Assembly (NCBI RefSeq): GCF_001306055.1
Contig: NZ_LGHJ01000019.1
Coordinates: 1-32,000 of the forward strand
Direction: 5' to 3'
DNA: 32,000 nucleotides
Source of the DNA: Bellilinea caldifistulae
Lineage (GTDB): Bacteria > Chloroflexota > Anaerolineae > Anaerolineales > Anaerolineaceae
Shown: piece by piece, positions 7,167 to 21,312 of the stretch
How positions within the stretch are numbered: the stretch's first letter is position 1
Layout of the letters: each line of letters begins with the position of its first letter
Made by a program: the position numbers and the translations under genes
The notes under the pieces: model-generated
What the model saw: only the letters and a program-made list of their open reading frames with translations
What the model was told of the DNA's origin: nothing
Database searches by the model: none

Positions 7167-9278
7167 GTGGACCAAAAAGCTCTGAATGGCTTACTCAGGC
7201 CGAATAAAATTGCGGTGGTGGGGGCCTCTGCAACCCCCGGAAAAATTGGTTATACAGTTGTGAAAAATTTACTGGAAGGCGGTTATCAAGGAAAAATCTA
7301 TCCCGTCAATCCCTCCGCAACAGAAATTCTGGGCTTGAAAGTATATCCTTCCATCCGTGATATCCCTGAAGACATTGACGCTGCCATCATTACCATCCCG
7401 GCAAAGGCAGTACTACCCACCGTTGATGAATTGGGCGCCAAAGGCGCAAAAGGGATGATTGTCATCACCTCCGGCTTCAGTGAAGTTGGTTTGAAAGAAC
7501 TGGAACGCGAACTGGTCGAAAAGGCCAACAGTTACGGTATTCGCGTATTGGGACCGAATATCGTGGGTGTGCTTTCAAATTCTGACAAGATGAACGGTTC
7601 TTTTGCCCCCTTCCTACCTTTGGAAGGTAAGGCTTCACTGGTTTCCCAATCGGGAGCGCTGCTGATTGCCATTGATGCCGCCAGTTATATTCGTCGGGTT
7701 GGTTTTGATAAGCTCATTTCGATCGGCAACATGTCCGATGTGGATTTTGCCGACCTGATTACCTGGCTGAACGAGGATCCCAACACTTCCTGCATTTCTC
7801 TTTACATCGAAGGTTTTCGGGATGGGCGGCGATTTATCGAAGCAGCCCGCAATGCGAATAAACCCATCATCGCTCTCAAAGCGGGTGTTTCAGCGCATGG
7901 CGCAGCTGCTGCTGCCTCGCACACCGGTTCGCTTGCCGGAGCCGCCAAAGTGTATGGGGCTGCTTTCCAGCAGGCCGGCGTGGTTCAGGCAACTGACCTG
8001 AACGATCTGTTCAACCGCACCTTATCCCTCTCCCTGCAACCGCCCATGAAAGGCGATAACTTACTGGTCATCACCAATGGCGGTGGTGTAGGTGTTCTGG
8101 CAACCGACGCCGCAGAAAAATCGGGCGTCCCGCTTAAATTTGCCCCAGCAGATGTGCAGGCTGAGTTAAAGAAGCACATGCCTGAATTTGGCTCGGCCAA
8201 AAATCCGGTTGATCTGACCGGAATGGCCGGGACAGAGTGGTATCAGGCTTCCATCCGCTTTGCCTTTGCCCATCCATGGGTTGACGGTCTGGTTGTTCTC
8301 TATTGTGAAACCGCCATGACTGACCCGCTGGAAATTGCCAAAGGCATCAAAAAAGCCATTGTCGATTCGGGTGTGACCGATAAGCCAGTGACGGTTTCCT
8401 TCGTAGGTGGTGAAAGATCCGAAGAAGCCATGCGCTGGCTGGTTGAAAACGGCATACCGGCTTATGGTGCCCCCGATCTGGCGGTTAACGCCATTGCCGC
8501 CTTGCGTGAATATGCCCGTATGAAAGAAATTGTCCGCGAGGAAGCCATGCCTTGTCTGGCTCAGGATCGAGAGCGTGCCTTGAAGATCATTAACAAAGCT
8601 CGCAGCGAGGGGCGCGACTCGTTGACCGAGATCGAAGCCAAGGAAGTCTTCGAGTGCTACGGTTTACCGGTAACCCCCACCCGCCTGGCGCGCAACGAGG
8701 ACGAGGCTGTGGCTCTGGCTCGCGAAATCGGTTATCCGGTTGTAATGAAAATCGTCTCCCCCGACATCCTCCACAAGTCGGATGCGGGTGGCGTACGGGT
8801 CAACATCAAAGATGATGCTGGCGTTCGCGAAGCCTTCAAAACGATTATGAAGAACGCCAAAGAATACAAGGCAACCGCCAATATTCATGGTATTGCTGTA
8901 CAGGAAATGGCCCCGTGGGGCACCGAGGTCATTCTTGGCTCGGTCAACGATCCAACCTTTGGCCCAACCATGATGTTTGGTCTGGGCGGCATCTTTGTCG
9001 AGGTTCTCAAGGATGTCACCTTCCGTGTTGCGCCGGTGACGTCCAGCCAGGCTTTGCGCATGCTGGACGAGATTCGGGGTGCCCCCATTATTGCTGGTGT
9101 GCGCGGTGAGGCCCCGCGTGACCGTCAGGCGCTGGCTGATGTGATTTGTCAGTACTCGACCATGATTCTCGACCTGGCTGATGAAGTAAGCGAATCGGAC
9201 GCCAATCCCGTCTTGGTTTACGAATCCGGCAAAGGACTGAAAGTGGTGGATGCCCGCATCATCCTCAAGAAAAAATAG
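7167..9278 (+). CDS. Acetate--CoA ligase (ADP-forming) family, fused alpha/beta (CoA-binding + succinyl-CoA-synthetase-like + ATP-grasp domains)
   Basis: GTG start at 7167, preceded by GGAGGA (7155-7160). The N-terminus has the CoA-binding motif IAVVGASATPGKIGYTVVKNL..IYPVNP. The central region contains AAAASHTGSLAG, which includes the phospho-His loop. The C-terminal part is an ATP-grasp domain (GYPVVMKIVSPDILHKSDAGGV). Length is 703 aa. Confidence 0.88.
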   Translation: MDQKALNGLLRPNKIAVVGASATPGKIGYTVVKNLLEGGYQGKIYPVNPSATEILGLKVYPSIRDIPEDIDAAIITIPAKAVLPTVDELGAKGAKGMIVITSGFSEVGLKELERELVEKANSYGIRVLGPNIVGVLSNSDKMNGSFAPFLPLEGKASLVSQSGALLIAIDAASYIRRVGFDKLISIGNMSDVDFADLITWLNEDPNTSCISLYIEGFRDGRRFIEAARNANKPIIALKAGVSAHGAAAAASHTGSLAGAAKVYGAAFQQAGVVQATDLNDLFNRTLSLSLQPPMKGDNLLVITNGGGVGVLATDAAEKSGVPLKFAPADVQAELKKHMPEFGSAKNPVDLTGMAGTEWYQASIRFAFAHPWVDGLVVLYCETAMTDPLEIAKGIKKAIVDSGVTDKPVTVSFVGGERSEEAMRWLVENGIPAYGAPDLAVNAIAALREYARMKEIVREEAMPCLAQDRERALKIINKARSEGRDSLTEIEAKEVFECYGLPVTPTRLARNEDEAVALAREIGYPVVMKIVSPDILHKSDAGGVRVNIKDDAGVREAFKTIMKNAKEYKATANIHGIAVQEMAPWGTEVILGSVNDPTFGPTMMFGLGGIFVEVLKDVTFRVAPVTSSQALRMLDEIRGAPIIAGVRGEAPRDRQALADVICQYSTMILDLADEVSESDANPVLVYESGKGLKVVDARIILKKK

Positions 9279-9340: not shown

Positions 9341-9757
9341 CTTCTGGGTTTGTAAAAGCCGTTGCCAGGCCCCTTTCCAGGGTGTACCAAGGCGGTTACG
9401 CTCAGCCACCTGAATCTTCTGTAATTTTTGAGCAATCCACACAGAAAGCAAAGCAACCTGATTCCAATCCTCGTCCTTTAGAGACTCCAGCATTGCCCGC
9501 CCCAATTGATTGACCCACTCCCACTCCATACGAAATCGCTCAGCCTTGACCCAGTATCCCCGCTTTTCCCATGCCTGAACCGAAATATCAATGGTTTCGC
9601 CAATTTCAATCAAGGCCAGGCCGATAAATGCTGCCAGATCACGAGTATTTTCATCGGCCTGTTCTTGCTTCATCAATTCCCGGATTGCCAGAACAACCCC
9701 TTTGGTCAATTGTGTCCGTTGTTTTCCAGCGCTTTCCGGGTTAATTAAGCGGCTCAT
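9338..9757 (-). CDS. Hypothetical protein (139 aa)
   Basis: ORF 9338..9943. The start is taken at ATG 9757 (MSRLINPESAGKQ...), preceded by GAGGAG. The longer N-terminal extension would run through the tRNA promoter and att region. No domain recognised. Confidence 0.55.
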   Translation of the reverse strand: MSRLINPESAGKQRTQLTKGVVLAIRELMKQEQADENTRDLAAFIGLALIEIGETIDISVQAWEKRGYWVKAERFRMEWEWVNQLGRAMLESLKDEDWNQVALLSVWIAQKLQKIQVAERNRLGTPWKGAWQRLLQTQK

Positions 9758-9875
9758 AGTTCTCCTCGATGAATAAAGATTGGCGCAATTATACCAGCCC
9801 GGCTTCATAGATAGAATAAAAATTCTTGAAAAAGTGAATTTTTCCCCAGCCGTTATACTCTTCAACCGTGATAGG

Positions 9876-9884
9876 TGGTATAAT
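9876..9884 (+). promoter_or_regulatory. Extended -10 promoter (TGGTATAAT), inferred to be the original tRNA-Leu promoter; it now precedes only the truncated 5' tRNA copy and the integrase
   Basis: The TGnTATAAT motif lies 17 nt upstream of the first tRNA-homologous base (9901). It is a motif call only. Confidence 0.5.
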
Positions 9885-9898
9885 TGGCGCGCAAACCA

Positions 9899-9944
9899 GC
9901 GGGGAAGTGCTGGAACTGGCAGACAGGCATGACTTAGGATCATG
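9899..9944. repeat. attL: 46-bp direct repeat, a truncated copy of tRNA-Leu (2 nt of 5' flank plus the tRNA from base 1 through the 3' side of the anticodon stem)
   Basis: GCGGGGAAGTGCTGGAACTGGCAGACAGGCATGACTTAGGATCATG is identical base for base to 17179-17224. The flanking bases differ on both sides (A9898 vs T17178; C9945 vs T17225). Confidence 0.92.
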
Positions 9945-10031
9945 CCATTTGGCTAAGCAAACATTCACCCGTAAATCTGGCGGTATCGCGCATGGCCACC
10001 CCCACAAATACGGCATTTTGGAGGGTGGCTC

Positions 10032-10988
10032 ATGTCTTCTTCAAAAACGCGGCACATTACCCGCACTCATGTTTTTACCTTCGGTTTGGATCACCTCAGC
10101 ACTGCCATTGAAGCCTTCATCATAGATAGGCAATCCAGCGGACTATCTTCCAATACCATCCAGTTTTATCGAAACTGTCTCAGGCGATTTATTGAGTTTT
10201 GCGATAGCCAGGCAATCACCCAAATTGACCAGGTCGCACCGGATACCATCCGGGCTTATCTTTTGTGGCTGGAACAGAACGGCCACAATCCCAGCGGTCG
10301 CCATGCCCATTATCGAAGTCTGCGCGCCTTTATGTTCTGGCTGGAAACTGAATTGGGTGAAGATACTTACCGCGCCCCCATCCGTAAGGTCAAACCGCCT
10401 AAAGTGCCAAAAGAGATTATCGAAGGCGTCAGCCTGGATGACGTTCAACGGATGATTGACGCATGCAAGGGCAACCGCTTTACCGATTTACGGGATAAAG
10501 CCCTTCTGTTTTTCTTGCTGGATGCCGGCACACGCGCCAGCGAAGCCCTTGCCGTTGACCTTGCCGATGTGGACTTTGCCACCGGCGGCGTCCTGATCCG
10601 CAAAGGCAAAGGGAATAAATCCCGCATGGTCTACTTTGGCAAGAATACCCGCCGCGCCATCACCGCTTACCTCAAAAACCGTGAAGATGATCATCCTGCC
10701 CTGTGGGTCAATGAGAAAGGCGAACGCCTTACCCGCTTTGGGCTGGATAAAGTCCTGCGTGTGCGTGCCAAAGAAGCCGGTATCACCAACCCACCCAGCG
10801 CGCATGATTTTCGCCGGGCTTTTGCCCTGAATATGCTACGATCGGGGTGCGACGTGTTCACCCTTCAAAGGCTCATGGGACACAGTGATCTAACCGTCTT
10901 GCGCCGGTATCTTGCCCAGAACGAAAATGACTTACAGCAAGCCCATCAGCGGTTTAGCCCGGTTGAAAATTTGGCAAAGAAAGGATAA
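10032..10988 (+). CDS. Tyrosine recombinase/integrase, XerC/XerD-like (no obvious arm-binding N-domain)
   Basis: An N-terminal SAM-like core-binding domain (AIEAFIIDRQSSGLSSNTIQFYRNCLRRF) is present. The catalytic residues are R in GTRASE, K in KGKGNKSR, HxxR in AHDFRRAF, H in GHSDL and Y in RRYL. GGAGGG (10020-10025) lies upstream of ATG 10032. Confidence 0.92.
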   Translation: MSSSKTRHITRTHVFTFGLDHLSTAIEAFIIDRQSSGLSSNTIQFYRNCLRRFIEFCDSQAITQIDQVAPDTIRAYLLWLEQNGHNPSGRHAHYRSLRAFMFWLETELGEDTYRAPIRKVKPPKVPKEIIEGVSLDDVQRMIDACKGNRFTDLRDKALLFFLLDAGTRASEALAVDLADVDFATGGVLIRKGKGNKSRMVYFGKNTRRAITAYLKNREDDHPALWVNEKGERLTRFGLDKVLRVRAKEAGITNPPSAHDFRRAFALNMLRSGCDVFTLQRLMGHSDLTVLRRYLAQNENDLQQAHQRFSPVENLAKKG

Positions 10989-11139
10989 AACAGCCGGAAT
11001 TTTCCCTCCAGAAAGCCCTAGAAAGCCCGTTCTAGCCTTCACAGGTCATTTGATATGGATTGTCCAAAGAACGGGCAAATTTCGGGCTTTGGTTGCTCAG
11101 TATGGCAGGCATGCCCAAAAAACTGACGTTTTCCTGAAC

Positions 11140-11538
11140 CTAGTCCGTAGGCGGTTCAGCCTGCGCCGCAGCCTCATCAATCCTGCGTTCAAGGTCGGTA
11201 ATCCGGGCTTCCAATTCAACCGCATTCCGAAAACGCAAGACGGCATCCAGTACTGTTTTAGCAGCCGCAAGCCGTGCGCCCGGTAGTCGGCGGTCGGTCA
11301 CAAGGTCGGACAACGCATCAAGCGCGCCGCTCTGCATACTGAGCAGCCTCCGCATGGCTTCTTCCAGCAACCCACTTTCTGCCTCTTGCAAGGCTTCACG
11401 GAAGGCCGGCTGCCGCAGCCAGCGGTAAGCGGTCTTTTCGCCGATACCGCACTTATGCGCCGCCTCCCGTGCGCTTTTACTGGTCAGCAGGGCTTGAAGA
11501 AAGCGTTTTTGCCTTGCGGTTAGGTCGTTTCGGGTCAT
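11140..11538 (-). CDS. Small HTH protein with terminase-small-subunit-like layout (132 aa)
   Basis: LTARQKRFLQALLTSKSAREAAHKCGIGEKTAYRWLRQPAFREALQE, followed later by ARLAAAKTVLD, follows the pattern of Terminase_2-type TerS N-termini (L-x-x-KQ-x-F...A-A-x-x-AG-x-x-x-x-TA-x-x...P-x-V-x-x-x-I). The assignment is by recalled motif similarity, not by a search. Confidence 0.55.
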   Translation of the reverse strand: MTRNDLTARQKRFLQALLTSKSAREAAHKCGIGEKTAYRWLRQPAFREALQEAESGLLEEAMRRLLSMQSGALDALSDLVTDRRLPGARLAAAKTVLDAVLRFRNAVELEARITDLERRIDEAAAQAEPPTD

Positions 11539-11758
11539 CTTCTGTCATCCTGACATACTGGCGCAATTGCCAGCGGTCAAAATGGATTGTACCAGCAAAC
11601 AATCGCACCAGGTAGCCAAACGTCACCAGCGCCGCCGTGACTTCCGCATCCGTTGCGCCTTCCAATGCCAGCCGGAAGCGGGCAAGGTCGAAATCCCGCC
11701 GCACTTCCGGCGGCAGGTTGGCCAGAAGGTCGGCAAGCGGAAGTTCGCGGTAGTTCAT
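11477..11758 (-). CDS. Hypothetical protein (93 aa), element-encoded
   Basis: ORF 11477..11800. ATG 11758 (MNYRELPLADLL) overlaps the TGA stop of the upstream gene as ATGA, suggesting translational coupling. Its 3' end overlaps the next gene by 62 nt. No recognisable domain. Confidence 0.45.
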   Translation of the reverse strand: MNYRELPLADLLANLPPEVRRDFDLARFRLALEGATDAEVTAALVTFGYLVRLFAGTIHFDRWQLRQYVRMTEDDPKRPNRKAKTLSSSPADQ

Positions 11759-12540
11759 TCTACCCAAACAACATTCTCGCCTTCTGGTGAAGGCATCCAC
11801 AGCGGGATAGGCGTCCGTGAGGGTTCATGGTCACGGCAGCGGGTGATTGCGGTCAGCGCCTGGCTGAAGGCGGTTTGCATCCGTTGAAGCCCAACCTCCA
11901 CCTCCTGCCATTTGGCGGCGATTTTCTTCTCCCGGTCGCTCATGAAGCGTTCTTCCGCCTGGTCAATCGCCTTGTGCATGTCCGCAACAGCAGCATCGAA
12001 GCCCGTCAGCCCGTGCTTTGCCTGATACCAGGCCGGATATCCCTCACGCAACACCCGGCAATCTTTGCGGTCGGTCACGGTCAGCAGAATTTCTGGCAAG
12101 GAACGCCCGGCATTCAACAAAGTTTCAAATTGCGGCCAGCGGCGCAAAGCGTAAGCCTGGAACACCGATTCATCCTGCGGGTTCGCCGCCGTGCGCTCTT
12201 CTTGAAGTTTTGCGAAAGCCTGATTGCCAAGTTCCTGAATGCGCCCATGCCACAGGTGGAGCACCTCAACGGCTTCATCCACAATCAGATTACAAGCAGC
12301 AGCGGAAACGGACGGGTCAAGCCCGGCCTTGCGCATTTGACGCACACCCTCAAAGGCCAGCGTCACGATTTCAGCGATTGGCTCATGCACCTGACGCAGT
12401 TCATAAATTGGATTTTCAACGGTAACACCTGCTTGAATGCGTAAACCGTTGAAATCACTCGTAACACGGCGCGGCAGATAGCGCCGGGCAATGTCCGCCA
12501 GTTCAGCGGGAGTATAGTAAACAGCAGGCTGATTAGCCAT
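11755..12540 (-). CDS. Hypothetical protein (261 aa), element-encoded
   Basis: This long ORF has AGGAG upstream of ATG 12540 and its own TGGTATAAT promoter. No domain recognised. The + strand ORFs 11827..12444 and 12018..12425 are antisense shadows. Confidence 0.6.
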   Translation of the reverse strand: MANQPAVYYTPAELADIARRYLPRRVTSDFNGLRIQAGVTVENPIYELRQVHEPIAEIVTLAFEGVRQMRKAGLDPSVSAAACNLIVDEAVEVLHLWHGRIQELGNQAFAKLQEERTAANPQDESVFQAYALRRWPQFETLLNAGRSLPEILLTVTDRKDCRVLREGYPAWYQAKHGLTGFDAAVADMHKAIDQAEERFMSDREKKIAAKWQEVEVGLQRMQTAFSQALTAITRCRDHEPSRTPIPLWMPSPEGENVVWVE

Positions 12541-12590
12541 TTCTCACACTCCTATAGAAAATATGTTTTGCGAACGGGTGTTCTGTATTC

Positions 12591-12599
12591 ATTATACCA
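12591..12599 (-). promoter_or_regulatory. Extended -10 promoter (TGGTATAAT on the minus strand) for the 261-aa/93-aa/TerS-like gene block
   Basis: The reverse complement of 12591-12599 is TGGTATAAT. A TTGGGC -35-like hexamer lies 16 nt upstream, and the motif sits about 50 nt upstream of ATG 12540. Confidence 0.45.
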
Positions 12600-12654
12600 C
12601 CGAACACTTTTTGCCCAACATAATACGCATTGTCTTGGGCATCCTCACCGGTCG

Positions 12655-12900
12655 TCAGCCGGTCTTGGACGGGTCACCTCCCGTATACGGCGCAATTTTC
12701 GCCAGAAGTTCAAGGCAATCGCCTTCGCTCAGGTCAGGTACAGCCTCCTGAAGCCGCCGCACCTGGTCAAGGATTGCGGGCCGGTCAAGGGCATCCAACC
12801 GGTAAAATGCCCGGTACAGCGGATGAAGCCGCTCAATTTGCTTGCGGTCGAGTTCCATCACCGCAAGAAGCGACAAAGGCGGGCAGTAGTCACCGGTCAT
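12655..12900 (-). CDS. Hypothetical protein (81 aa), element-encoded
   Basis: ORF 12655..12993. The start is taken at ATG 12900 (MTGDYCPPLSLL), which overlaps the end of the upstream gene by 11 nt. No domain recognised. Confidence 0.45.
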   Translation of the reverse strand: MTGDYCPPLSLLAVMELDRKQIERLHPLYRAFYRLDALDRPAILDQVRRLQEAVPDLSEGDCLELLAKIAPYTGGDPSKTG

Positions 12901-13270
12901 TTGTTCGCTCCATCGCCAACCGCAAGAGTTCATCAGCCACCGTTGGAACATCCGCCAGCGGCACAGCGGGTAAGGTGATCCCATCCCGGCCAAACATATA
13001 AAACTTGCCGTGCTTCAGATACTTGCGCCCAATGGCCCGCAAAGCCTCCTGTTCAGTATCGGAAAAGTATCTTCCGGCCGGAAAGGTGTCAAAGTGGATA
13101 CGAGCATATTTCCGCCGTGCCGTTACCCGCAAATAGGGCATCCGGTTTGCCTTGCAAAAATGCCAAAAAGCATTCAAAACCGGCAAAGGCGTACCTTCCC
13201 GCGCAACGATATAGCCAGTTTCGCAGGCTTGCTCAAAGATTTGTTTGTATCTGCCCCGTAGTGTGGTCAT
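12890..13270 (-). CDS. Hypothetical protein (126 aa), element-encoded
   Basis: ORF 12890..13405. The start is taken at ATG 13270 (MTTLRGRYKQIF), with GGAGG 7 nt upstream. The longer version would read through the repeat field. No domain recognised. Confidence 0.5.
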   Translation of the reverse strand: MTTLRGRYKQIFEQACETGYIVAREGTPLPVLNAFWHFCKANRMPYLRVTARRKYARIHFDTFPAGRYFSDTEQEALRAIGRKYLKHGKFYMFGRDGITLPAVPLADVPTVADELLRLAMERTNDR

Positions 13271-13292
13271 TCCTAACCTCCGATCTTGACTT

Positions 13293-13400
13293 GGTGACGA
13301 AGGGTGACGAGAAAATGGCGTTTTTTGATTTTTCCCCCTTAAGTGGTCACTTAAGAAAGAAAACTTGAAAAGTGGCCTTTTCTCGTCACCTCTCGTAACC
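13293..13400. repeat. Iteron/palindrome field: candidate replication origin or operator cluster of the element
   Basis: Tandem 10-mers GGTGACGAAG GGTGACGAGA (13293-13312) face the inverted tandem TCTCGTCACC TCTCGTAACC (13381-13400), with 17/20 matches as an inverted repeat and a 13-bp perfect core GGTGACGAGAAAA / TTTTCTCGTCACC. Between them lie a T-rich tract (13321-13333) and the palindrome CTTAAGTG-GT-CACTTAAG (13338-13355). The field is immediately downstream of the replicase stop at 13402. Confidence 0.6.
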
Positions 13401-13401
13401 G

Positions 13402-15552
13402 TCATACTCCAATCCCTTTGAAAAACTTTCCGTTCTTTCTCACTTCGCGTTCAAAACCATGTGCCACCATGAGTTTTGAGAATAACTGAATGGACTTCAC
13501 CGCCTGCGGGACGCCGTTTAAGCGGCAGTGCTGCTCATAGGTGGCGAATAAGTCGCTTGCCTTTGTCTCAAGTCGCGGGTCGAGTTTACAGGTCGCCAGA
13601 AAATCGGCCAGTGGGTCGCTGTCCGCGCGCCAGGCTTCGGCGGCTTGAACGCACTGCGGCGGCGGGTTCAGCCCTTCCCGCTGGTAAGCCAGACAGCCTT
13701 CCAATGCCCAATTCAGGATACCGGGCAGTTCGGCTTGAAGTTTTGCCCTCAGGTTCTTGTCTTGATTTTGTCCCTCAAAGCGCGCAAGGAATGGGATCAG
13801 CACCACCCGCCGCCAGAACGCAGGTGAAACGTCCCGCACCTTTGGCAGGTCGTTCGCCGCCAAAAATAACTTGAATTGCGGCATGTAGGTTCTCTCGTGT
13901 TCGTGCTTTCGCGATCCCGTTACCGGGTCTTGACCGGTAACCAGTTTCAAAACCGCCTCATTCAGTGTGCCAACCGTCGAAGTTTCTACAGCAACCACCA
14001 GCCGCGCGCCCTCCAACGCCATCAGGCTTTCCTGGTGGCCGCCTTTGTTCGGGTCAGTGGTAAAGGTTGAAAAACTGGTGCTTTTGGCACAGTCCCCCAG
14101 CGCGGCGCGCAGGGTATCAAGCAACGTAGATTTCCCGTTCAGCCCCCGCGCCCCGTGACAGAAGAAAAACACCTGTTCACGGGTAAGGCCGGTTAGGGTA
14201 TAACCAACCGCCCGTTGGATGAAGGTAATCATTTCCTGGTCATCCAGGAAGACTTCCCTCAAAAACTGCTCCCAACGCGGCGCTTTGGCTTGCGGGTCGT
14301 AATGCGTCCCGGCGCATTGGGTCAGGTAATCATCCGGCTGACCTTCCCGAAAGTCCCCCGTTTCCAGGTCTACAATGCCATTCTGCACAGCCAGCAGTAA
14401 AGGTTTTTGATCAAATTTCCTGCCGCTTTTGGCCAGGTTCGGGCGGCTCTTGGCAATTTCCAGCATCGAACGCAGACGATACCCGTTTTCTGAATTCAGT
14501 AAAAACGTCATCGTTTTCTTCCGCAAGTCGGCATCTTGAATGCCGAACGCCTGTGCCTGCCGCTCCCGGATGGCTTCCAGCGCCAAACGTTCAACCGCGC
14601 CATCGTCATCTGTCACCCACACCGGCGAACGGAAGACATACCAGCGGCGGGTATCATGCCGATAGCAGATTTGTTTCTCGTGTCGGTCGCCAAAAAATTC
14701 AGCATTGCCGGCATCGGTCAAGGCATAGCCTGGTTGATAACGACATACTGATTGAGCAATCCGGGTGACTTCGGCATCATCCAGCGGCGGCTGGCACTGT
14801 GCCTGATTAAGTACCCTCAATGCTGCCAAAATCGCGGGTTCATCCATCCCCGCCCGGCGCATCCGCCCGGCCTCACTGGTCAGCCAGGTGTTCCGTTGCC
14901 CTTGTAACACCTTTCCGCCCTGTGCCTGCTGCCCCTGTGGCTTGTGTCCGTTCGGCGTGCTTTGCCCGGCGGTAAGCAGGTTCAGCAACCATCCGGGCAG
15001 GTCGGCGGGTTCGTCATTTTCCGGGTCAGAGGACGCTTCCCAAACATAGGCATTCCCGCTTGAATGAATTGACGGCGGCGCAACCACAAAACCGCCATCG
15101 GCGCGAATGTCCAAACCGGGACCAAGCGCACCGGCGGAAGATTTTAGGTATTGAACACCCGCCGGGTATTTGAAGTACAAGTGCCGCCCACCGCCGCCGG
15201 TCAAGGATTCAAGGGTGGCAGGTAACCGCCCGAATTTGGCTTCAAGATCAAGCAAGGTTGCGTCCCCGTCATGTCGCGGGTCAACGTCCAGCACCACTAA
15301 ACCACTTTCGCACCCGGTCGCAATGCCTACGTTGGCTTCAGGTTGCATCGTCCACCAGACCGCGATTTGGTCAAGATCAATGGTGGCATCCTTGAAGCCA
15401 CGCGGGACAAGCGCGCCGATCGGGTGCTTGCCAGGTGATTGACAATTAGGGTTGCCACAGGTACAGCACCCATTATGCACCGAATGCACCGGAAAAACGC
15501 GCCAGCCGCGCAAGGAATACGTCACAAGTTCAGTTATCGAGATTGTGTTCAT
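13402..15552 (-). CDS. Bifunctional primase-polymerase (PrimPol) fused to a P4/D5-type SF3 helicase (phage/plasmid primase, P4 family)
   Basis: The N-terminus reads GWRVFPVH...CQSPGKHP...ANVGIATG..SGLVVLDVDPRHDG...GGGGRHLYF, which carries the PrimPol DxD and sGGG-H motifs. The C-terminal half has the Walker A motif HGARGLNGKSTLLD and a D5_N/P4-type NTPase region. Length is 716 aa. Confidence 0.9.
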   Translation of the reverse strand: MNTISITELVTYSLRGWRVFPVHSVHNGCCTCGNPNCQSPGKHPIGALVPRGFKDATIDLDQIAVWWTMQPEANVGIATGCESGLVVLDVDPRHDGDATLLDLEAKFGRLPATLESLTGGGGRHLYFKYPAGVQYLKSSAGALGPGLDIRADGGFVVAPPSIHSSGNAYVWEASSDPENDEPADLPGWLLNLLTAGQSTPNGHKPQGQQAQGGKVLQGQRNTWLTSEAGRMRRAGMDEPAILAALRVLNQAQCQPPLDDAEVTRIAQSVCRYQPGYALTDAGNAEFFGDRHEKQICYRHDTRRWYVFRSPVWVTDDDGAVERLALEAIRERQAQAFGIQDADLRKKTMTFLLNSENGYRLRSMLEIAKSRPNLAKSGRKFDQKPLLLAVQNGIVDLETGDFREGQPDDYLTQCAGTHYDPQAKAPRWEQFLREVFLDDQEMITFIQRAVGYTLTGLTREQVFFFCHGARGLNGKSTLLDTLRAALGDCAKSTSFSTFTTDPNKGGHQESLMALEGARLVVAVETSTVGTLNEAVLKLVTGQDPVTGSRKHEHERTYMPQFKLFLAANDLPKVRDVSPAFWRRVVLIPFLARFEGQNQDKNLRAKLQAELPGILNWALEGCLAYQREGLNPPPQCVQAAEAWRADSDPLADFLATCKLDPRLETKASDLFATYEQHCRLNGVPQAVKSIQLFSKLMVAHGFEREVRKNGKFFKGIGV

Positions 15553-15922
15553 CGTCGCCGTCCCAAAGTTCTAACTGCACCGCATTTGCCAAACCGATAA
15601 TCTTCACCGCCCGGCGGACGGTTCGCGCTTTCCATTGCTTCACCGCTTCCGGCGCAGGGTCAAGCCAGTAGCCGCTTCCCCCCTTCGCCGTGCTTGATAA
15701 AATCGGGTATCCTGCCCGGCGTAGGGCTTCAATCCGCGCCCGCAGTTCTCGCTCCGAACAGCCCCGCGCTGCGGCAAGGTCGGTCATGCTGATTTTTTCT
15801 CCCGCAGGTAATTGACGCAAAATGTTCACAAGTGTATAATCCAAATAGCGAACGCTGCCCCGCGTTCTCAAGCCTTGCCCGCCGCCGCCAACGGCGGGTT
15901 CTGTTTTGTTAGTTTTGTCCAT
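15530..15922 (-). CDS. Winged-helix HTH DNA-binding protein (HTH_11/BirA-N-like), element-encoded
   Basis: ISMTDLAAARGCSERELRARIEALRRAGYPILSS..GYWL is a typical wHTH. Its 3' end overlaps the primase start by 23 nt. Confidence 0.65.
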   Translation of the reverse strand: MDKTNKTEPAVGGGGQGLRTRGSVRYLDYTLVNILRQLPAGEKISMTDLAAARGCSERELRARIEALRRAGYPILSSTAKGGSGYWLDPAPEAVKQWKARTVRRAVKIIGLANAVQLELWDGDDEHNLDN

Positions 15923-16103
15923 GCTGCACCTCAGCCCCGCTTGCGTTTTCTTTGGTTTTCTCTTCGCTTTGCTTTTTTTGAAACGACTTTGAAAGTTCCC
16001 GGCGAATGACCGCTGAAGGCGTTAGGAATTCGGTTTCAGCCCGCCGCTGGACTTCTTCCCAAAGCCAGCCGGGAAGCCGGATTGCAAAAATTTTTTGGGA
16101 CAT
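15909..16103 (-). CDS. Ribbon-helix-helix (CopG/Arc-like) regulator, 64 aa
   Basis: ORF 15909..16196. The start is taken at ATG 16103 (MSQKIFAIRLPGWLWEEVQRRAETEFLTPSAVIRRELSK, a beta strand followed by two helices as in RHH proteins). AGGAG lies 7 nt upstream. It is the first gene of the leftward operon and overlaps the next gene by 14 nt. Confidence 0.7.
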   Translation of the reverse strand: MSQKIFAIRLPGWLWEEVQRRAETEFLTPSAVIRRELSKSFQKKQSEEKTKENASGAEVQHGQN

Positions 16104-16117
16104 AGGACATCTCCTAA

Positions 16118-16210
16118 AACGGTAATTATTTGAAATACCGTTACTATAATACGATATATTACAACGATTGACAACAATAAAAAAATCTGTTATCATTTTT
16201 TTACCGTTAC
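16118..16210. promoter_or_regulatory. Divergent back-to-back promoters with three TACCGTT operator copies (genetic switch of the element)
   Basis: The rightward promoter is TTGACA (16168-16173), 17 nt, then TATCAT (16191-16196). The leftward promoter is TTGTCA (complement of 16169-16174), 17 nt, then TATTAT (complement of 16146-16151). The two -35 hexamers overlap. Operator-like sites are AACGGTA (16118-16124) inverted against TACCGTTAC (16136-16144), plus a third TACCGTTAC (16202-16210) at the predicted rightward transcription start. Confidence 0.6.
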
Positions 16211-16238
16211 ATAAACCTTAAAAAATTGGAGATTTCCC

Positions 16239-16952
16239 ATGCAAGGACATGCTCAACTGGTTTATCCCCGTTCCTGGACACGCGGCAAGCCCACATTGAA
16301 AGGTGATTACATCACCATCAGCCAGCCTGAAGAGTATCAGCCTTACGAATGTGCCAATCTGGTATTTGACTTTTCCGGCTTACGGACGCCAAAGGACGTT
16401 ACCGCTTTTGTCGGCCAGTACGGACTTTTGAAACGTACTGAAGGGCTTGAAAAAGTCACGGACATTTTGGCGGAAGCGGCGGCAGTAAGGCTTTTGTTCC
16501 AAATGGTGATTGCCATCCGCAGGGTAGATACTTCTTTCCTGCGGGACATTTGGCAAATTTCGGACTTTGCCAAACTGTTTGAAGCCCCTCCGAAAGATGA
16601 TGATGAATTACTGGCTCAAGCCTCCGTGCTTGTAGCATGGACTATCAACGAAAACCTTGCGGGCGTCCCTCACGGTCTCATCCCTGAAGCGGCATTTGAA
16701 GTGGACGGCGTCAGCGGGTCGCCAGGTATTTTTCTTTGGGTGGCTTATCCCGATAATCTGCTTCAATACATTTACTATCAACTGGCAATGACTATAAACC
16801 TGAAAACTCCGCTTGCTTCATGCACCGAATGCGGAAGGATTTTCAAGGTCGAGCATGGCAATCAGGAATATTGCTCCAGCCGTTGCTCCAACCGGGCAAG
16901 AATAAGACGCTTCCGAGAAAAACGGCAGCCAGGTCAAAAACAGCCGCAATGA
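16239..16952 (+). CDS. Element-encoded protein with C-terminal CGNR-type zinc-ribbon-like motif (237 aa); N-terminal domain unknown
   Basis: GGAG lies 7 nt upstream of ATG 16239. The C-terminus, CTECGRIFKVEHGNQEYCSSRCSNRARIRRFR, resembles the zf-CGNR pattern C-x2-C...F....WC-x3-CGNR-x-K. This is recognised by motif, not by a search. Confidence 0.6.
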   Translation: MQGHAQLVYPRSWTRGKPTLKGDYITISQPEEYQPYECANLVFDFSGLRTPKDVTAFVGQYGLLKRTEGLEKVTDILAEAAAVRLLFQMVIAIRRVDTSFLRDIWQISDFAKLFEAPPKDDDELLAQASVLVAWTINENLAGVPHGLIPEAAFEVDGVSGSPGIFLWVAYPDNLLQYIYYQLAMTINLKTPLASCTECGRIFKVEHGNQEYCSSRCSNRARIRRFREKRQPGQKQPQ

Positions 16953-16989
16953 ATAGCAGCCGCCGATCAAAACGTGCTAAATCTCCCCC

Positions 16990-17017
16990 TTGTCACATTG
17001 TGACAACCCGCTATAAT
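16990..17017 (+). promoter_or_regulatory. Element-borne sigma70-like promoter (TTGTCA-16-TATAAT) overlapped by the perfect palindrome TTGTCAC-ATT-GTGACAA; points at the rebuilt tRNA-Leu
   Basis: The -35 hexamer is at 16990-16995, the -10 at 17012-17017 and the palindrome at 16990-17006. No other convincing promoter motif is visible between here and the tRNA 5' end at 17181. Confidence 0.5.
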
Positions 17018-17178
17018 TGTGCTAGCGTCAACGGGTTATTTACACCCAATCTTAAAAAATCAACCGCAAAAATGGGCTTTTACGGCACATGATTAGCCCA
17101 TTTTGCGGGCGGCGGGTGGCAAAAAAGCACCGCCATATCTGGCTTAAAACGGGCAAAAAACGCCCATTAAGCCAAAAT

Positions 17179-17224
17179 GCGGGGAAGTGCTGGAACTGGC
17201 AGACAGGCATGACTTAGGATCATG
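17179..17224. repeat. attR: 46-bp direct repeat forming the 5' part of the intact tRNA-Leu
   Basis: Identical to 9899-9944. Confidence 0.92.
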
Positions 17225-17262
17225 TGCCGAAAGGCGTGCGGGTTCAAGTCCCGCCTTCCCCA
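17181..17262 (+). tRNA. tRNA-Leu, anticodon TAG (class II, long variable arm), no encoded CCA
   Basis: Folded by hand. The acceptor stem is GGGGAAG/CTTCCCC. The anticodon stem is CATGA/TCATG with loop CTTAGGA, placing the anticodon at 17215-17217. The variable arm is TGCCGAAAGGCGT, the T arm is GCGGG-TTCAAGT-CCCGC, and the discriminator is A17262. Confidence 0.9.
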
Positions 17263-17288
17263 CTCAAATTAAAATTCTTTAAACAAGG

Positions 17289-18737
17289 ATGATCAAGTTG
17301 AAACTCGAAATCCAACCCCGAGATGACCATCAGGTCAATGTGATTGCTGAATTTGAGACCGAACTTTTAGAGCAATTCAAACGCCGTTCAGCGCGAAAAA
17401 TTGCAGAAAAAACCCGTATCCCCGGTTTTCGCCCCGGCAAGGCACCTTATGACGTTGTGCGTCGGGTCGTGGGAGAAGAAGCTCTAATCGAGCAAGCTAT
17501 TGAAGACTTGATTGATGAATACTATCCAAAAATTTTGGAAGAAGCCAGCCTCAAACCCGGCGCAGCCGGTAATTTAGAAAAAATCCTCAGTTTGGACCCG
17601 CCAAAATTTTCCTTCCTCGTCCCGTTAGAGCCGGAAGTTGACTTAGGCAATTACAAAGATATTCGTCTGGAATATTCCCCGCAGGCCGTTGAAGAACAAG
17701 AAGTAACCGACTTCCTCAAGCGTTTGCAAACGAATTACGCCACGGCTGAACCGGTTGACCGCCCTGCTCAGGAAGGTGACTTGGTTTACATCAAATTTTC
17801 CGGAAAATTGACGCACCCCGCCGAAGGAGAGGACGAGATGGTTTTTCCGGAACGGCCAGCTCAATTCATTTTGGGCAGCGATTTGATGGAGAACCGCTCT
17901 TTCCCGTTTCCCGGCTTTTCCGAAAATTTGACTGGTAAAAAAGAAGGCGATGCTTTCACCCTCACCTACACCTTCCCGCAAGACGAGAAGGATGAAGCCC
18001 TGCGTGGTAAAGAGGTCGAGTTTCAAGTGACCGTGCAGAGCGTCAAATCGCTGATCTTGCCTGAACTCAATGACGAATTCGCCCAGACTATCGGTCAATT
18101 TGAAACATTGGAAGACCTTAAGAAGGCAATTCGTGAGCAGTTAGAAAATGCAAAAAAAGAAGAGGCCGATGAAACCTTTTTCAATCAACTTTTCGAACGG
18201 CTGCAAGCCCAAGCAACCATCAAATACCCGCCTCAGGTACTGGAACATGAGATTGAACATTTGTTGGAGGACTTCCAGCACGATTTGAGCCGACAGGGGA
18301 TGGAACTGGACACTTATCTCAAGATGGTCAATAAAGACCGTGAAACCTTCATTCGAGAAGAACTCGAACCGATTGCCCGCCGCCGGCTTGAACGTTCGTT
18401 GATCATGGAAAAATTCGCCGACGTGGAACAAATCAAAATTGACGAAACCAATTATCAGCAGGCCATTCAAGACTCATTGCGTGATTTGCAATCCATGCCA
18501 ATGGACAAAAAACCCACAAAGGCTGAACAAAACCAACTCACCCAAGAGGTATTGATTTACAATATCAATCGCAGGCTGAATCAAATGATCCTGAATCGGA
18601 TGAAAGCCATTGCTACCGGACAAGCTTTGGAAGAACAACCTGCCGAACAAGGCCTCGCCAGCGAATCCTCAACCGAGTCTGATTCCGGTAACGAGCCTGT
18701 TCAGGAAGAGAATCAGGACGCGCCTGCTGAGGAATAG
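17289..18737 (+). CDS. tig: Trigger factor (ribosome-associated PPIase chaperone)
   Basis: A trigger factor N-domain with the ribosome-binding motif ([14 protein letters not shown]), a central FKBP-like region and an acidic C-terminal tail are present. It lies directly upstream of clpP. The start could instead be TTG 17298, which is better spaced from AAGGA. Confidence 0.9.
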
Positions 18738-18772: not shown

Positions 18773-19378
18773 ATGTCCATTCCGGCTTTTCAAAATATCA
18801 TCCCTATGGTCATCGAAAGTACTGGCCGCGGTGAGCGTGCTTACGATATCTACTCGCTGCTTTTGAAAGAGCGCATCGTATTTGTTGGTACTCCAATTGA
18901 TGACCAGATTGCTAACCTGATTGTAGCTCAACTGCTTTACCTGAGCAAAGAAGATCCCGATAAGGGTATCCAAATGTACATCAATTCCCCCGGTGGAATG
19001 ATCTACGCAGGCATGGCAATCTACGACACCATGATGATGATCCCCAACAAAATCAGCACGGTAGCTGTTGGCGTTACCGCCTCGTTCGGCACGGTTCTGC
19101 TGGCAGCCGGCACCAAAGGACAACGCTATGCACTGCCCCATGCAACCATCCACATGCACCAGCCGCTCGGTGGTGCTTCGGGTCAGGCTTCGGACATCGA
19201 AATCCAGGCCAAAGAAATCCTGCGACTGAAATCGCGTTTGAACGAAATTCTGGCCGAATGCACTGGCCAGCCGTTGGAAGTCATCGAGCGGGATACCGAG
19301 CGGGATTTTTACATGGATGCCCAACAAGCAGTTGAATACGGGCTGGTGGATCAGGTTCTCACCCCACCGAAAAAATAA
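18773..19378 (+). CDS. clpP: ATP-dependent Clp protease proteolytic subunit ClpP
   Basis: The sequence reads [55 protein letters not shown]...ASFGTVLL...[12 protein letters not shown], consistent with the Ser-His-Asp triad context. AAAGGAGA lies upstream. The 218-aa minus ORF 18746..19402 is its antisense shadow. Confidence 0.96.
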
Positions 19379-19383
19379 CCCCT

Positions 19384-19415
19384 TTCCGGCAGGGTTAAGC
19401 AAAACCCTGCCGGAA
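19384..19415 (+). terminator. Stem-loop after clpP (TTCCGGCAGGG-N10-CCCTGCCGGAA), possible terminator
   Basis: The stem is an 11-bp perfect match. The T tract (CCCTTTTCT) is displaced by 5 nt, so efficiency is uncertain. Confidence 0.5.
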
Positions 19416-20223: not shown

Positions 20224-21312
20224 ATGGTTGAAAAAGAACCGCCCTCTCTAAAACCACTGATTTACGATCTCGATTATACCGATCTCGAGAATCTGGTCAG
20301 AGATTGGCAGCAGCCTTCGTTTCGTGCTCGTCAGATTTGGGAAGGCTTGTATCAAACATACTGGCGTAATCCCGAAGAATTTACCAACCTGCCGCTTTCT
20401 TTGAGACAAAGGTTGGCAGATAGTTTTCGGTTCATTTCATTAGAACCCATTCAAATCCTCCATTCCTCCGATCGGGAAACCATCAAAACGCTCTTCCAAT
20501 TACCGGATGGATGAGCAATCGAAGCAGTATTGATGAAGTATGAGAAACGCCGCACGTTGTGTATCTCCACACAATCGGGCTGTGCGATGGGCTGCGTGTT
20601 TTGTGCTACGGGTCAAATGGGATTCAAGCGGAATTTGACCAGCGGTGAAATTGTCGAACAGGTTATTTATTACGCAAACCTGCTTCGCCGGGAAGGCGAA
20701 TCGGTCACCAATATCGTCTTAATGGGTATGGGCGAGCCTTTCCATAACTACGATGCCACCATGGCCGCCATAGACCGGCTCAATCACCCATTGGGCATGA
20801 ATTTAGGGGCGCGAAGGTTTACCATCTCAACCGTAGGACTGGTACCCATGATCCGCCGTTTTGCCGCAGAACAAAGACAGATTAATCTGGCTATCAGCCT
20901 GCATGCAGCCGATGACGAGCTACGCACCTCAATGCTGCCAGTTAACAAAAAATACCCGCTCAGCGAATTGATGGCAGCCTGTCGGGATTATGTTGCCCAA
21001 ACCCACCGCCGCCTCACCTTTGAATGGGCATTAATCCAGAATGTGAATGATTCCGTTGAAACCGCCCGCAAACTCGCCCGGCTTTTGGAAGGTTTGTTGT
21101 GTCATGTCAATGTCATTCCCCTGAACCCCACACAAAAATACGCTGGAAAAGGAAGTACACGCGAGCGTGCCCTGGCGTTCAAGGCCGAATTGGAACGCCA
21201 TGGTGTTCCCTGCACCATCCGCATCCGGCGCGGTATTGATATTCAGGCTGGCTGCGGTCAGCTGGCAATTCAACAAGCCCAAAACTCCCCTTCCAATCCC
21301 CTTATGATATAA
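20224..21312 (+). pseudogene. rlmN: 23S rRNA/tRNA (adenine-C2)-methyltransferase RlmN (radical SAM), interrupted by one in-frame TGA at 20512-20514
   Basis: ORFs 20224..20514 and 20530..21312 are in the same frame. The reading across the stop is ...[48 protein letters not shown], a continuous RlmN motif block (DG-x-IE-x-V...CxxxCxxC). This may be a true nonsense mutation, a sequencing error or readthrough. Confidence 0.7.

Follow-up and report, generated by a model that had tools for sequence, protein, structure and literature searches.

The 32,000 nucleotides (nt) analysed here, referred to as the window, come from Bellilinea caldifistulae (contig NZ_LGHJ01000019.1, positions 1 to 32,000 of the forward strand) and carry an integrated element of 7,280 base pairs (bp) in a tRNA-Leu(UAG) gene. 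Coordinates are window positions throughout, and L-numbers designate related loci or contigs. Only one tRNA was found in the window, a tRNA-Leu(tag) called by ARAGORN at 17181-17263 and matched by Rfam at 17181-17262 with 54 bits. A repeat search of the whole 32 kb revealed a perfect 46-nt direct repeat, in which 9899-9944 is identical to 17179-17224 at a distance of 7,280 nt. Since all other repeats were of 31 nt at most, with no more than 74% identity, the 46-nt repeat is far beyond chance. The guanine plus cytosine (G+C) content between the two copies was 0.55-0.58 vs. 0.46-0.50 in the flanks. Host genes to the left of the element code for an ADP-forming acyl-CoA synthetase and a protein of 139 amino acids (aa), while those to the right are the trigger factor gene tig (17289-18737, + strand; Pfam Trigger_N and Trigger_C), which marks the host side of the right junction, followed by clpP (CLP_protease) and a HAD hydrolase gene.

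The 46-nt block corresponds to positions -2 to 44 of tRNA-Leu(UAG), that is, it begins 2 nt 5' of tRNA base 1 and ends at the final base of the anticodon stem's 3' arm, and its two copies bracket the element. The copy in the left attachment site (attL; 9899-9944, + strand) is a truncated tRNA 5' half placed beside the integrase gene int, whereas that in the right attachment site (attR; 17179-17224, + strand) belongs to the reconstituted intact gene (17181-17262, + strand). In the latter, element DNA lies 5' of the 5' part, while the 3' part and the downstream tig are host DNA; both halves match the tRNA of the relatives L001, L004, and L005 with zero mismatches. Alignment of the attachment regions showed that, in attL and in the attachment site of the element itself (attP), a 29-nt element spacer (9945-9973, + strand) stands where the tRNA 3' half would be. 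A perfect 7-bp inverted repeat, GGCATGA/TCATGCC, surrounds the anticodon loop in both. As the identity block covers the tRNA's 5' part and the intact gene is at the end distal to the native promoter, the element has the layout of the 5'-end ("reversed") tRNA integrators, and the same holds for the related loci L016 and L017. An earlier note on this DNA, made from the window alone, had placed the duplicated block between position -2 and the anticodon stem's 3' side, with the intact gene at attR and the truncated copy beside int, and the repeat search and the ARAGORN tRNA confirm this layout. The individual features that it had listed were also found in place: an extended -10 promoter at 9876-9884, the int ATG at 10032, TTGTCA-16-TATAAT at 16990-17017, and a palindrome at 16990-17006.

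The int gene (10032-10988, + strand) encodes a Xer-like tyrosine integrase of 318 aa, with a Pfam Phage_integrase match at 1e-34 and SAM-like N-terminal domains; its closest solved relatives are XerA and XerD. Residues R168, K193, H258, R261, H284, and Y293 were invariant in an alignment with eight relatives. The gene is intact, no part of it falls within the identity block, and its ATG is about 87-88 nt past the attL copy.

Empty sites (attB) were sought by scanning species-representative genomes with the trigger factor protein, which gave matches of 81-91% identity in Bellilinea and Anaerolineaceae genomes. In four relatives (L001, L002, L004, and L005) one copy of the block was present, within an intact tRNA-Leu(UAG) gene directly 5' of tig. 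The DNA 5' of this tRNA was colinear with window positions 9600-9898, including the extended -10 promoter TGGTATAAT (9876-9884, + strand), which is invariant in the four relatives and also occurs in L018 and L029. In addition, GGTATAATTGGCGCGC was invariant in all four empty-site relatives and GGTGGTATAATTGGCGCGCAAACCA in L001, L002, and L005. The window DNA 5' of 17179, in turn, is unrelated to the upstream DNA of the empty sites. Because the empty-site relatives place the equivalent of 9600-9898 directly 5' of the intact tRNA, the comparison shows that 9876-9884 is the native promoter region and that the element has parted it from the working gene, so that it now precedes the truncated 5' half only. 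The earlier note had taken TGGTATAAT to precede the tRNA natively and had named the upstream DNA of empty-site relatives as the place where this could fail; the four colinear relatives bear it out. [quoted passage not shown]

The junction predicted for the excised element was found in a metagenome contig of 1,465 nt (L028), whose integrase is 97% identical to that of the window over its 176 N-terminal residues. Its order is the right arm with TTGTCAC-ATT-GTGACAA...TATAAT, ACCGCCATAT, tRNA positions -2 to 44, the 29-nt spacer, the left arm, and int, and it is colinear with window positions 16941-17224 joined to 9945-10560. Five positions of its right arm differ from the window, and the initial 134 nt of its left arm match in full. 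The contig is the predicted junction of either an excised circle or a tandem pair, and the attP sequence is shown in either case. As L028 carries that junction, the element recombines through a 5'-half attP, with the element promoter then facing int. This is the arrangement that had been proposed from the window alone for the excised form, in which the promoter comes to lie 5' of attP and int. Taken together, tRNA-derived repeats, a complete R-K-H-R-H-Y set in the integrase beside the attachment site, an empty attB, and an attP junction characterise the element as a tRNA-targeting tyrosine-integrase element.

The same architecture was present in a second host genus. Two Thermanaerothrix assemblies (L016 and L017), with integrases 94% identical to that of the window, carry it between ftsH and tig as independent insertions; their upstream host gene (ftsH) differs from that of the window. 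GCA_032334255.1 and GCA_049701815.1 are among the genomes with a 5'-type element. Their repeat has 45 nt, covers tRNA positions 1-45, and starts exactly at G1, for which reason the window block's identity over two further bases upstream is probably coincidental. The Thermanaerothrix tRNA differs at three 5'-half positions, including a compensatory pair in the anticodon stem, and both copies of the repeat have the host version. The element-borne 5' stem arm thus pairs with the host 3' arm (CGTGA/TCACG vs. CATGA/TCATG in the window). Repeat copies of the host version fit selection, either to keep the chimeric tRNA functional or to make recombination efficient.

Elements with integrases 64-81% identical to that of the window (L029, L024/L026, L022, L018-21, L027, and L030) occupy the same tRNA in the same orientation, with the integrase gene beside the complete tRNA. 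In L029, for instance, a complete example with an 81% identical integrase, the full tRNA (8858-8939) is followed by int at 9001, and, at the other end, 15537-15586 hold the tRNA from its anticodon loop to the 3' end, with tig next to it. The element-length contig L025 yields, when its two ends are joined, an attP with CTTAGGA through the 3' end. Given that these sisters use the same tRNA in the 3'-half form, the switch from a 3'-half to a 5'-half attP maps to a short branch between 81 and 94% integrase identity and is recent. The comparison of the window, L017, and L028 blocks with those of L025 and L029 showed that 5'-type and 3'-type identity blocks overlap solely in tRNA positions 32-43. 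These 12 nt, the anticodon loop and the 3' stem arm (CTTAGGATCATG; 9933-9944, + strand, equivalent to 17213-17224 in attR), probably contain the strand exchanges if both kinds of integrase cut alike. A further relative, L023, with a 61% identical integrase, uses the same tRNA-Leu(UAG) with a 3'-half block (167-204 and 7500-7581 of that locus) in the context of a gene for an RRM protein, not tig. Its tRNA lies on the strand opposite int, so that the orientation of the core relative to int also varies in the integrase family.

Both types share the element promoter P2 (discussed below), a highly conserved stretch just 3' of it, the motif GGGTGGC, and an inverted pair of motifs, ATnTGGCGGTA / ACCGCCAnAT, which every family member has on the two attP arms, to either side of the core. 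In the window, the left-arm motif ATCTGGCGGTA (9975-9985, + strand), which is kept in all family left arms, is an inverted copy of the right-arm motif ACCGCCATAT (17129-17138, + strand), while GGGTGGC occurs at 10023 and, in the right arm, at 17114 (+ strand). The right arm has one motif copy in 5'-type and two in 3'-type elements. From the right and left arm motifs to the anticodon loop, 5'-type elements have 84 and 42 nt and 3'-type elements 75 and 53 nt. The span from one motif to the other is nevertheless nearly constant (126 vs. 128 nt), the core being shifted by about one helical turn between the two. The inverted motifs are probably arm or accessory-protein binding sites; the Xer-like integrase itself has no recognised arm-binding domain.

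Promoter scans, the results of which are consensus matches, gave potential promoters of the reconstituted tRNA in element DNA. P2, TTGTCA-16-TATAAT (16990-17017, + strand), has 11 of 12 consensus positions, lies 163 nt 5' of the tRNA, and is conserved in L016, L017, L028, L029, and L025. It is overlapped by the perfect palindrome TTGTCAC-ATT-GTGACAA (TTGTCACATTGTGACAA, 16990-17006). P2 is the best candidate to transcribe the reconstituted tRNA in the integrated state, and attP and int in the circle. A second promoter-like site, TTGACA-17-TATCAT with an extended TG (16168-16196, + strand), lies 5' of an open reading frame (ORF) similar to CGNR/HNH proteins and is a possible source of read-through toward the tRNA. 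No convincing -10 box was present at the usual distance from the attR tRNA, where the window has the hexamer CATTAA and L017 has CACTAA. The right arm of attP between P2 and the gene (17024-17180, 157 nt, + strand) would also be the leader of the tRNA transcript; it has four predicted hairpins, with a fold z-score of -4.84. None of the four is followed by a U tract, and no intrinsic terminator was predicted in this leader. It also contains a nested palindrome, GGCTTAA..GGGC..GCCC..TTAAGCC, which ends 6 nt before the tRNA and occurs in 5'-type elements only. An Rfam scan of 9700-17400 at E<=1 gave the tRNA and two sub-threshold chance matches, and thus no known RNA family in the arms.

At the other junction, a terminator scan of 9944-10032 did not reveal any terminator-like site between the truncated tRNA and int, in agreement with the earlier note. 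Transcripts from the host tRNA promoter would then enter a hairpin of 13-15 bp (9991-10034, + strand) in which the int Shine-Dalgarno sequence (SD; GGAGGG) and the AUG are paired, with a predicted energy of -24.5 kcal/mol and a pairing probability of about 1. Its sequence is kept across integrases of 62-97% identity, and covariation in a MAFFT alignment was weak, with a double change in one of 10 pairs. With the SD and AUG buried, transcription from the host promoter need not yield integrase, and the hairpin may keep int untranslated when the transcript starts there. When the leader of the circular form was folded, the right-arm GGGUGGC paired with the left-arm GCCACCC in the minimum-energy structure. 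Competition by this pairing for the anti-SD strand was considered as a way to release int in the circle, but the SD then pairs elsewhere and stays mostly paired, so this is speculation only. It must be noted that int also lies directly 3' of the host tRNA promoter in the 3'-type sisters. Of the promoter swap put forward in the earlier note, the separation of the tRNA from its native promoter therefore stands, as the empty sites show, while the placing of int behind a host promoter is not specific to this element.

In attention to the above, we favour, with a probability of about 0.7, the reading that this is a 5'-half-attP element in tRNA-Leu(UAG) which has taken the tRNA off its native promoter, transcribes it from within the element, and switched recently from a 3'-half attP. 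A satellite-like element of 7.3 kb is inserted in the tRNA-Leu(UAG) gene 5' of tig in a Bellilinea-like Anaerolineae genome, its attP carrying tRNA positions 1-44 and not the usual segment from the anticodon loop to the 3' end, and recombination probably took place in the anticodon loop or the 3' stem arm. The left junction consists of the host promoter, the truncated 5' half, and int, and the right junction of element DNA, the element-borne 5' half, the host 3' half, and tig. The tRNA would be transcribed from inside the element, likeliest from P2 with read-through from the upstream ORF possibly adding to it, as a transcript with a structured leader that RNase P would cut off. The host promoter would read through the 44-nt tRNA fragment into int, the translation of which would be damped by the hairpin, and in the circular form the element promoter would face attP and int. 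The lineage has recently left the ordinary 3'-half attP of its sisters. The structural half of the swap is strongly supported, and the transcriptional half is plausible though unproven, part of it being shared with the ordinary configuration.

Several points weigh against this reading. L028 could be the junction of a tandem array rather than of a free circle, and the crossover positions are deduced from the overlap of the blocks. P2 is equally conserved in the 3'-type sisters, which need no such tRNA promoter, so that its conservation is no proof of a role for the tRNA. For this reason, it is a promoter of general use to the element, in the simplest case that of int in the circular form, and no special adaptation to the swap; a role in tRNA transcription would be a co-option. 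The palindrome over P2 resembles an operator, which would be awkward for an essential tRNA, and transcription of the tRNA from P2, read from a consensus promoter match, is unproven. Moreover, native tRNA promoters in the clade mostly end 11-16 nt 5' of the tRNA (26 nt in L029), and this also speaks for the same architecture with another tRNA start, either at an unrecognised promoter within the final ~60 nt of the right arm or by read-through from 16168-16196. The sequence from ACCGCCATAT to the tRNA differs between the two types, its last ~60 nt being unique to the 5'-type; L017 has TACAAT ~40 nt 5' of the tRNA; and the 16168-16196 site is on the same strand as the tRNA. However, the hexamer at the usual -10 distance is without the critical final T in both the window and L017, the TACAAT of L017 is TAAAAC in the window and is thus unconserved, and the ORF upstream is missing in L016 while P2 is retained there. 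A start other than P2 consequently seems rather unlikely, although it is the most serious of the alternatives.

The favoured reading also implies that the attR tRNA is in use. It could instead be silent or weak, with another tRNA-Leu(UAG) gene decoding CUA and the displacement of the promoter having no physiological effect. The tRNA search covered the 32-kb window, and members of the wider integrase family create duplicate whole tRNA genes, so that redundancy can exist. Yet the attR tRNA is intact, with no difference from the tRNA of the relatives, the element-borne stem arm of Thermanaerothrix has the matching change that a functional chimeric tRNA would need, and a single tRNA was called near tig in all 10 loci of the tig scan with an ARAGORN tRNA. 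We regard a silent copy as very improbable. That the nearest sister elements (<=81% integrase identity) are all of the 3'-type at the same site might further suggest that the 5'-half duplication is a secondary rearrangement of a 3'-type insertion, a dead remnant with no recombination through a 5'-half attP. This is close to refuted by the exactly predicted 5'-half attP junction of L028, by the same architecture with other flanks in a second host genus, and by the perfect repeats and intact int.

With respect to the remaining genes, the element carries a small-terminase-like helix-turn-helix (HTH) protein (11140-11538, - strand; PHROG terminase small subunit at 2e-8, Pfam HTH_Tnp_1_2) and a Prim-Pol/PriCT/D5_N primase-helicase for replication (13402-15552, - strand; Pfam 1.9e-45, 2.2e-17, and 1.6e-29, PHROG DNA primase at 3e-135). 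Pfam and PHROG searches also assigned two small regulators, HTH_11 (15530-15922, - strand) and Arc-like (15909-16196, - strand), and the CGNR zinc-finger/HNH-like ORF (16239-16952, + strand), while several further element ORFs had no family match. By gene content, the 7.3-kb element resembles a small phage satellite-like unit or an integrated replicon. The relative L022 has Terminase_6N/6C fragments and a DnaG-type primase instead. The window, L017, and L025 have the CGNR/HNH-like ORF, and unrelated sequence takes its place in L016 and L028, where P2 and the right arm are kept despite the replacement; the position looks like a slot for variable cargo or a regulator beside the promoter. A scan of viral contigs with the integrase did not find any relatives.

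The integrase family has more than 1,000 members. Wider members of the family, with integrases of ~50-55% identity to that of the window, duplicate other tRNA genes to different extents. L031 has the whole tRNA-Arg(GCG) gene duplicated (76 nt; 9855-9930 and 19319-19394 of that locus), L032 the whole tRNA-Lys (TTT) gene with its flanks (82 nt; 9858-9939 and 14640-14721), and L034 the whole tRNA-Met (CAT) gene with a flank (82 nt at 95% identity; 9808-9889 and 20748-20829). In the distal copy of L034, which ARAGORN no longer calls, there are four changes, among them a compensatory pair in the T stem and a mismatch in the acceptor stem. In L036, whose integrase is ~50% identical, a 5'-type block in tRNA-Arg(TCG) extends from -23 to +40 and includes the TATAAT of the tRNA itself (9879-9941 and 18259-18321). 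This element thus carries a copy of the core promoter of its tRNA, which is one explicit solution to the promoter problem. Altogether, these repeats indicate that the integrase family is flexible in how much, and which part, of a tRNA gene is carried.

The possibility that the spacers are remains of the missing tRNA halves was considered and rejected. In global alignments against shuffled sequences, the 29-nt spacer compared with the tRNA 3' half gave p=0.47 in the window, where the similarity is thus not significant, and p=0.04 in L017; for the 31 nt that precede the loop in attPs of the 3'-type, comparison with the 5' half gave p=0.46 and 0.64. Support for a whole-tRNA ancestor would accordingly be indirect only, by way of the whole-tRNA repeats of the more distant family members.

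Regarding the known systems, the earlier note had overstated the novelty of the promoter separation. A passage of PMC6563490 (citing Zhao & Williams 2002 and archaeal cases) describes recombination in the 5'-distal part of tRNA genes as "considerably less frequent" than in the 3' part, and one of PMC8371274 (citing Williams 2002) calls the promoter separation of the 5'-type seldom encountered in bacteria. The attB of the archaeal pTN3-like integrases is, according to PMC8371274 and the S2 Fig legend of PMC5495485, the 5' half of tRNA-Leu, the rebuilt tRNA being "expressed from the integrase promoter", and the same places state that the tRNA promoter may transcribe the C-terminal integrase fragment. 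The principle is therefore already published, and the element is of a rare but known kind. Like the window element, the pTN3/TKV4-like elements of Thermococcales, with SSV-type integrases, target a tRNA-Leu gene by its 5' half, rebuild the full tRNA off its original promoter, and have the tRNA promoter facing the integrase. In contrast, their attP is inside the integrase ORF and integration splits int ("suicidal" integration), whereas attP in the window lies 87 nt 5' of an intact Xer-like int, which places the window element outside the pTN3 family. They are also archaeal plasmids or viruses, while the window element is a satellite-like unit with PrimPol and terS-like genes in a bacterial host of the Chloroflexota. 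By analogy, it would work like the pTN3 family without belonging to it.

The ordinary anticodon-loop integrators, represented here by the sisters L029, L025, L018, and L022, share with the window element the integrase clade, the tRNA-Leu(UAG)-tig target, the orientation with int by attL, the arm motifs, P2, and the boundary of the identity block at the anticodon loop. They differ in carrying the segment from the loop to the 3' end, so that the host promoter keeps driving the tRNA, while the window element carries positions 1-44. In the anticodon-loop sublocation class defined by Williams in 2002, crossover reportedly occurs in the 7-nt loop, with the stem arms as core sites. Satellites such as the phage-inducible chromosomal islands (PICI) and P4 have integrase, replication, and packaging-redirection genes but no structural genes, and are mobilised by a helper phage. 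The window element has traits of this kind in its size of 7.3 kb, terminal integrase, primase-helicase, small-terminase-like gene, small repressors, and lack of capsid and tail genes; it differs in being known from its genes alone, in its Chloroflexota host, and in its several unmatched ORFs.

To our knowledge, exceptions to the usual 3'-end layout are rare and have hardly been studied. The locus is a clean bacterial exception, with an empty site, a natural attP junction, a second host genus, and ordinary-type sisters. What it adds to the published cases is the occurrence of 5'-type and 3'-type sisters at one and the same tRNA within the same host genera, along with that junction, and the set of loci jointly bounds the likely crossover to 12 nt. 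In addition, island finders limited to 3' tRNA fragments will miss 5'-type elements. It offers a handle on whether an essential tRNA under an element promoter stabilises the element or costs the host, and on how int stays quiet behind a strong tRNA promoter. A more far-reaching picture, which we put forward only tentatively and consider rather doubtful as a whole, is that two configurations of one family parasitise the same host genera, and that a probably single-copy essential tRNA has come to depend on an operator-bearing element promoter. Deletion of the right end would then be lethal, an addiction-like promoter capture, and Int would be gated by the integration state through the SD/AUG hairpin and a competing right-arm GGGUGGC, co-transcribed only in the circle. 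If this were true, the two configurations would be a natural matched pair with which to ask why 3'-end integration dominates in bacteria. The loci in any case show that, among closely related integrases of one clade, tRNA complementation can change its polarity.

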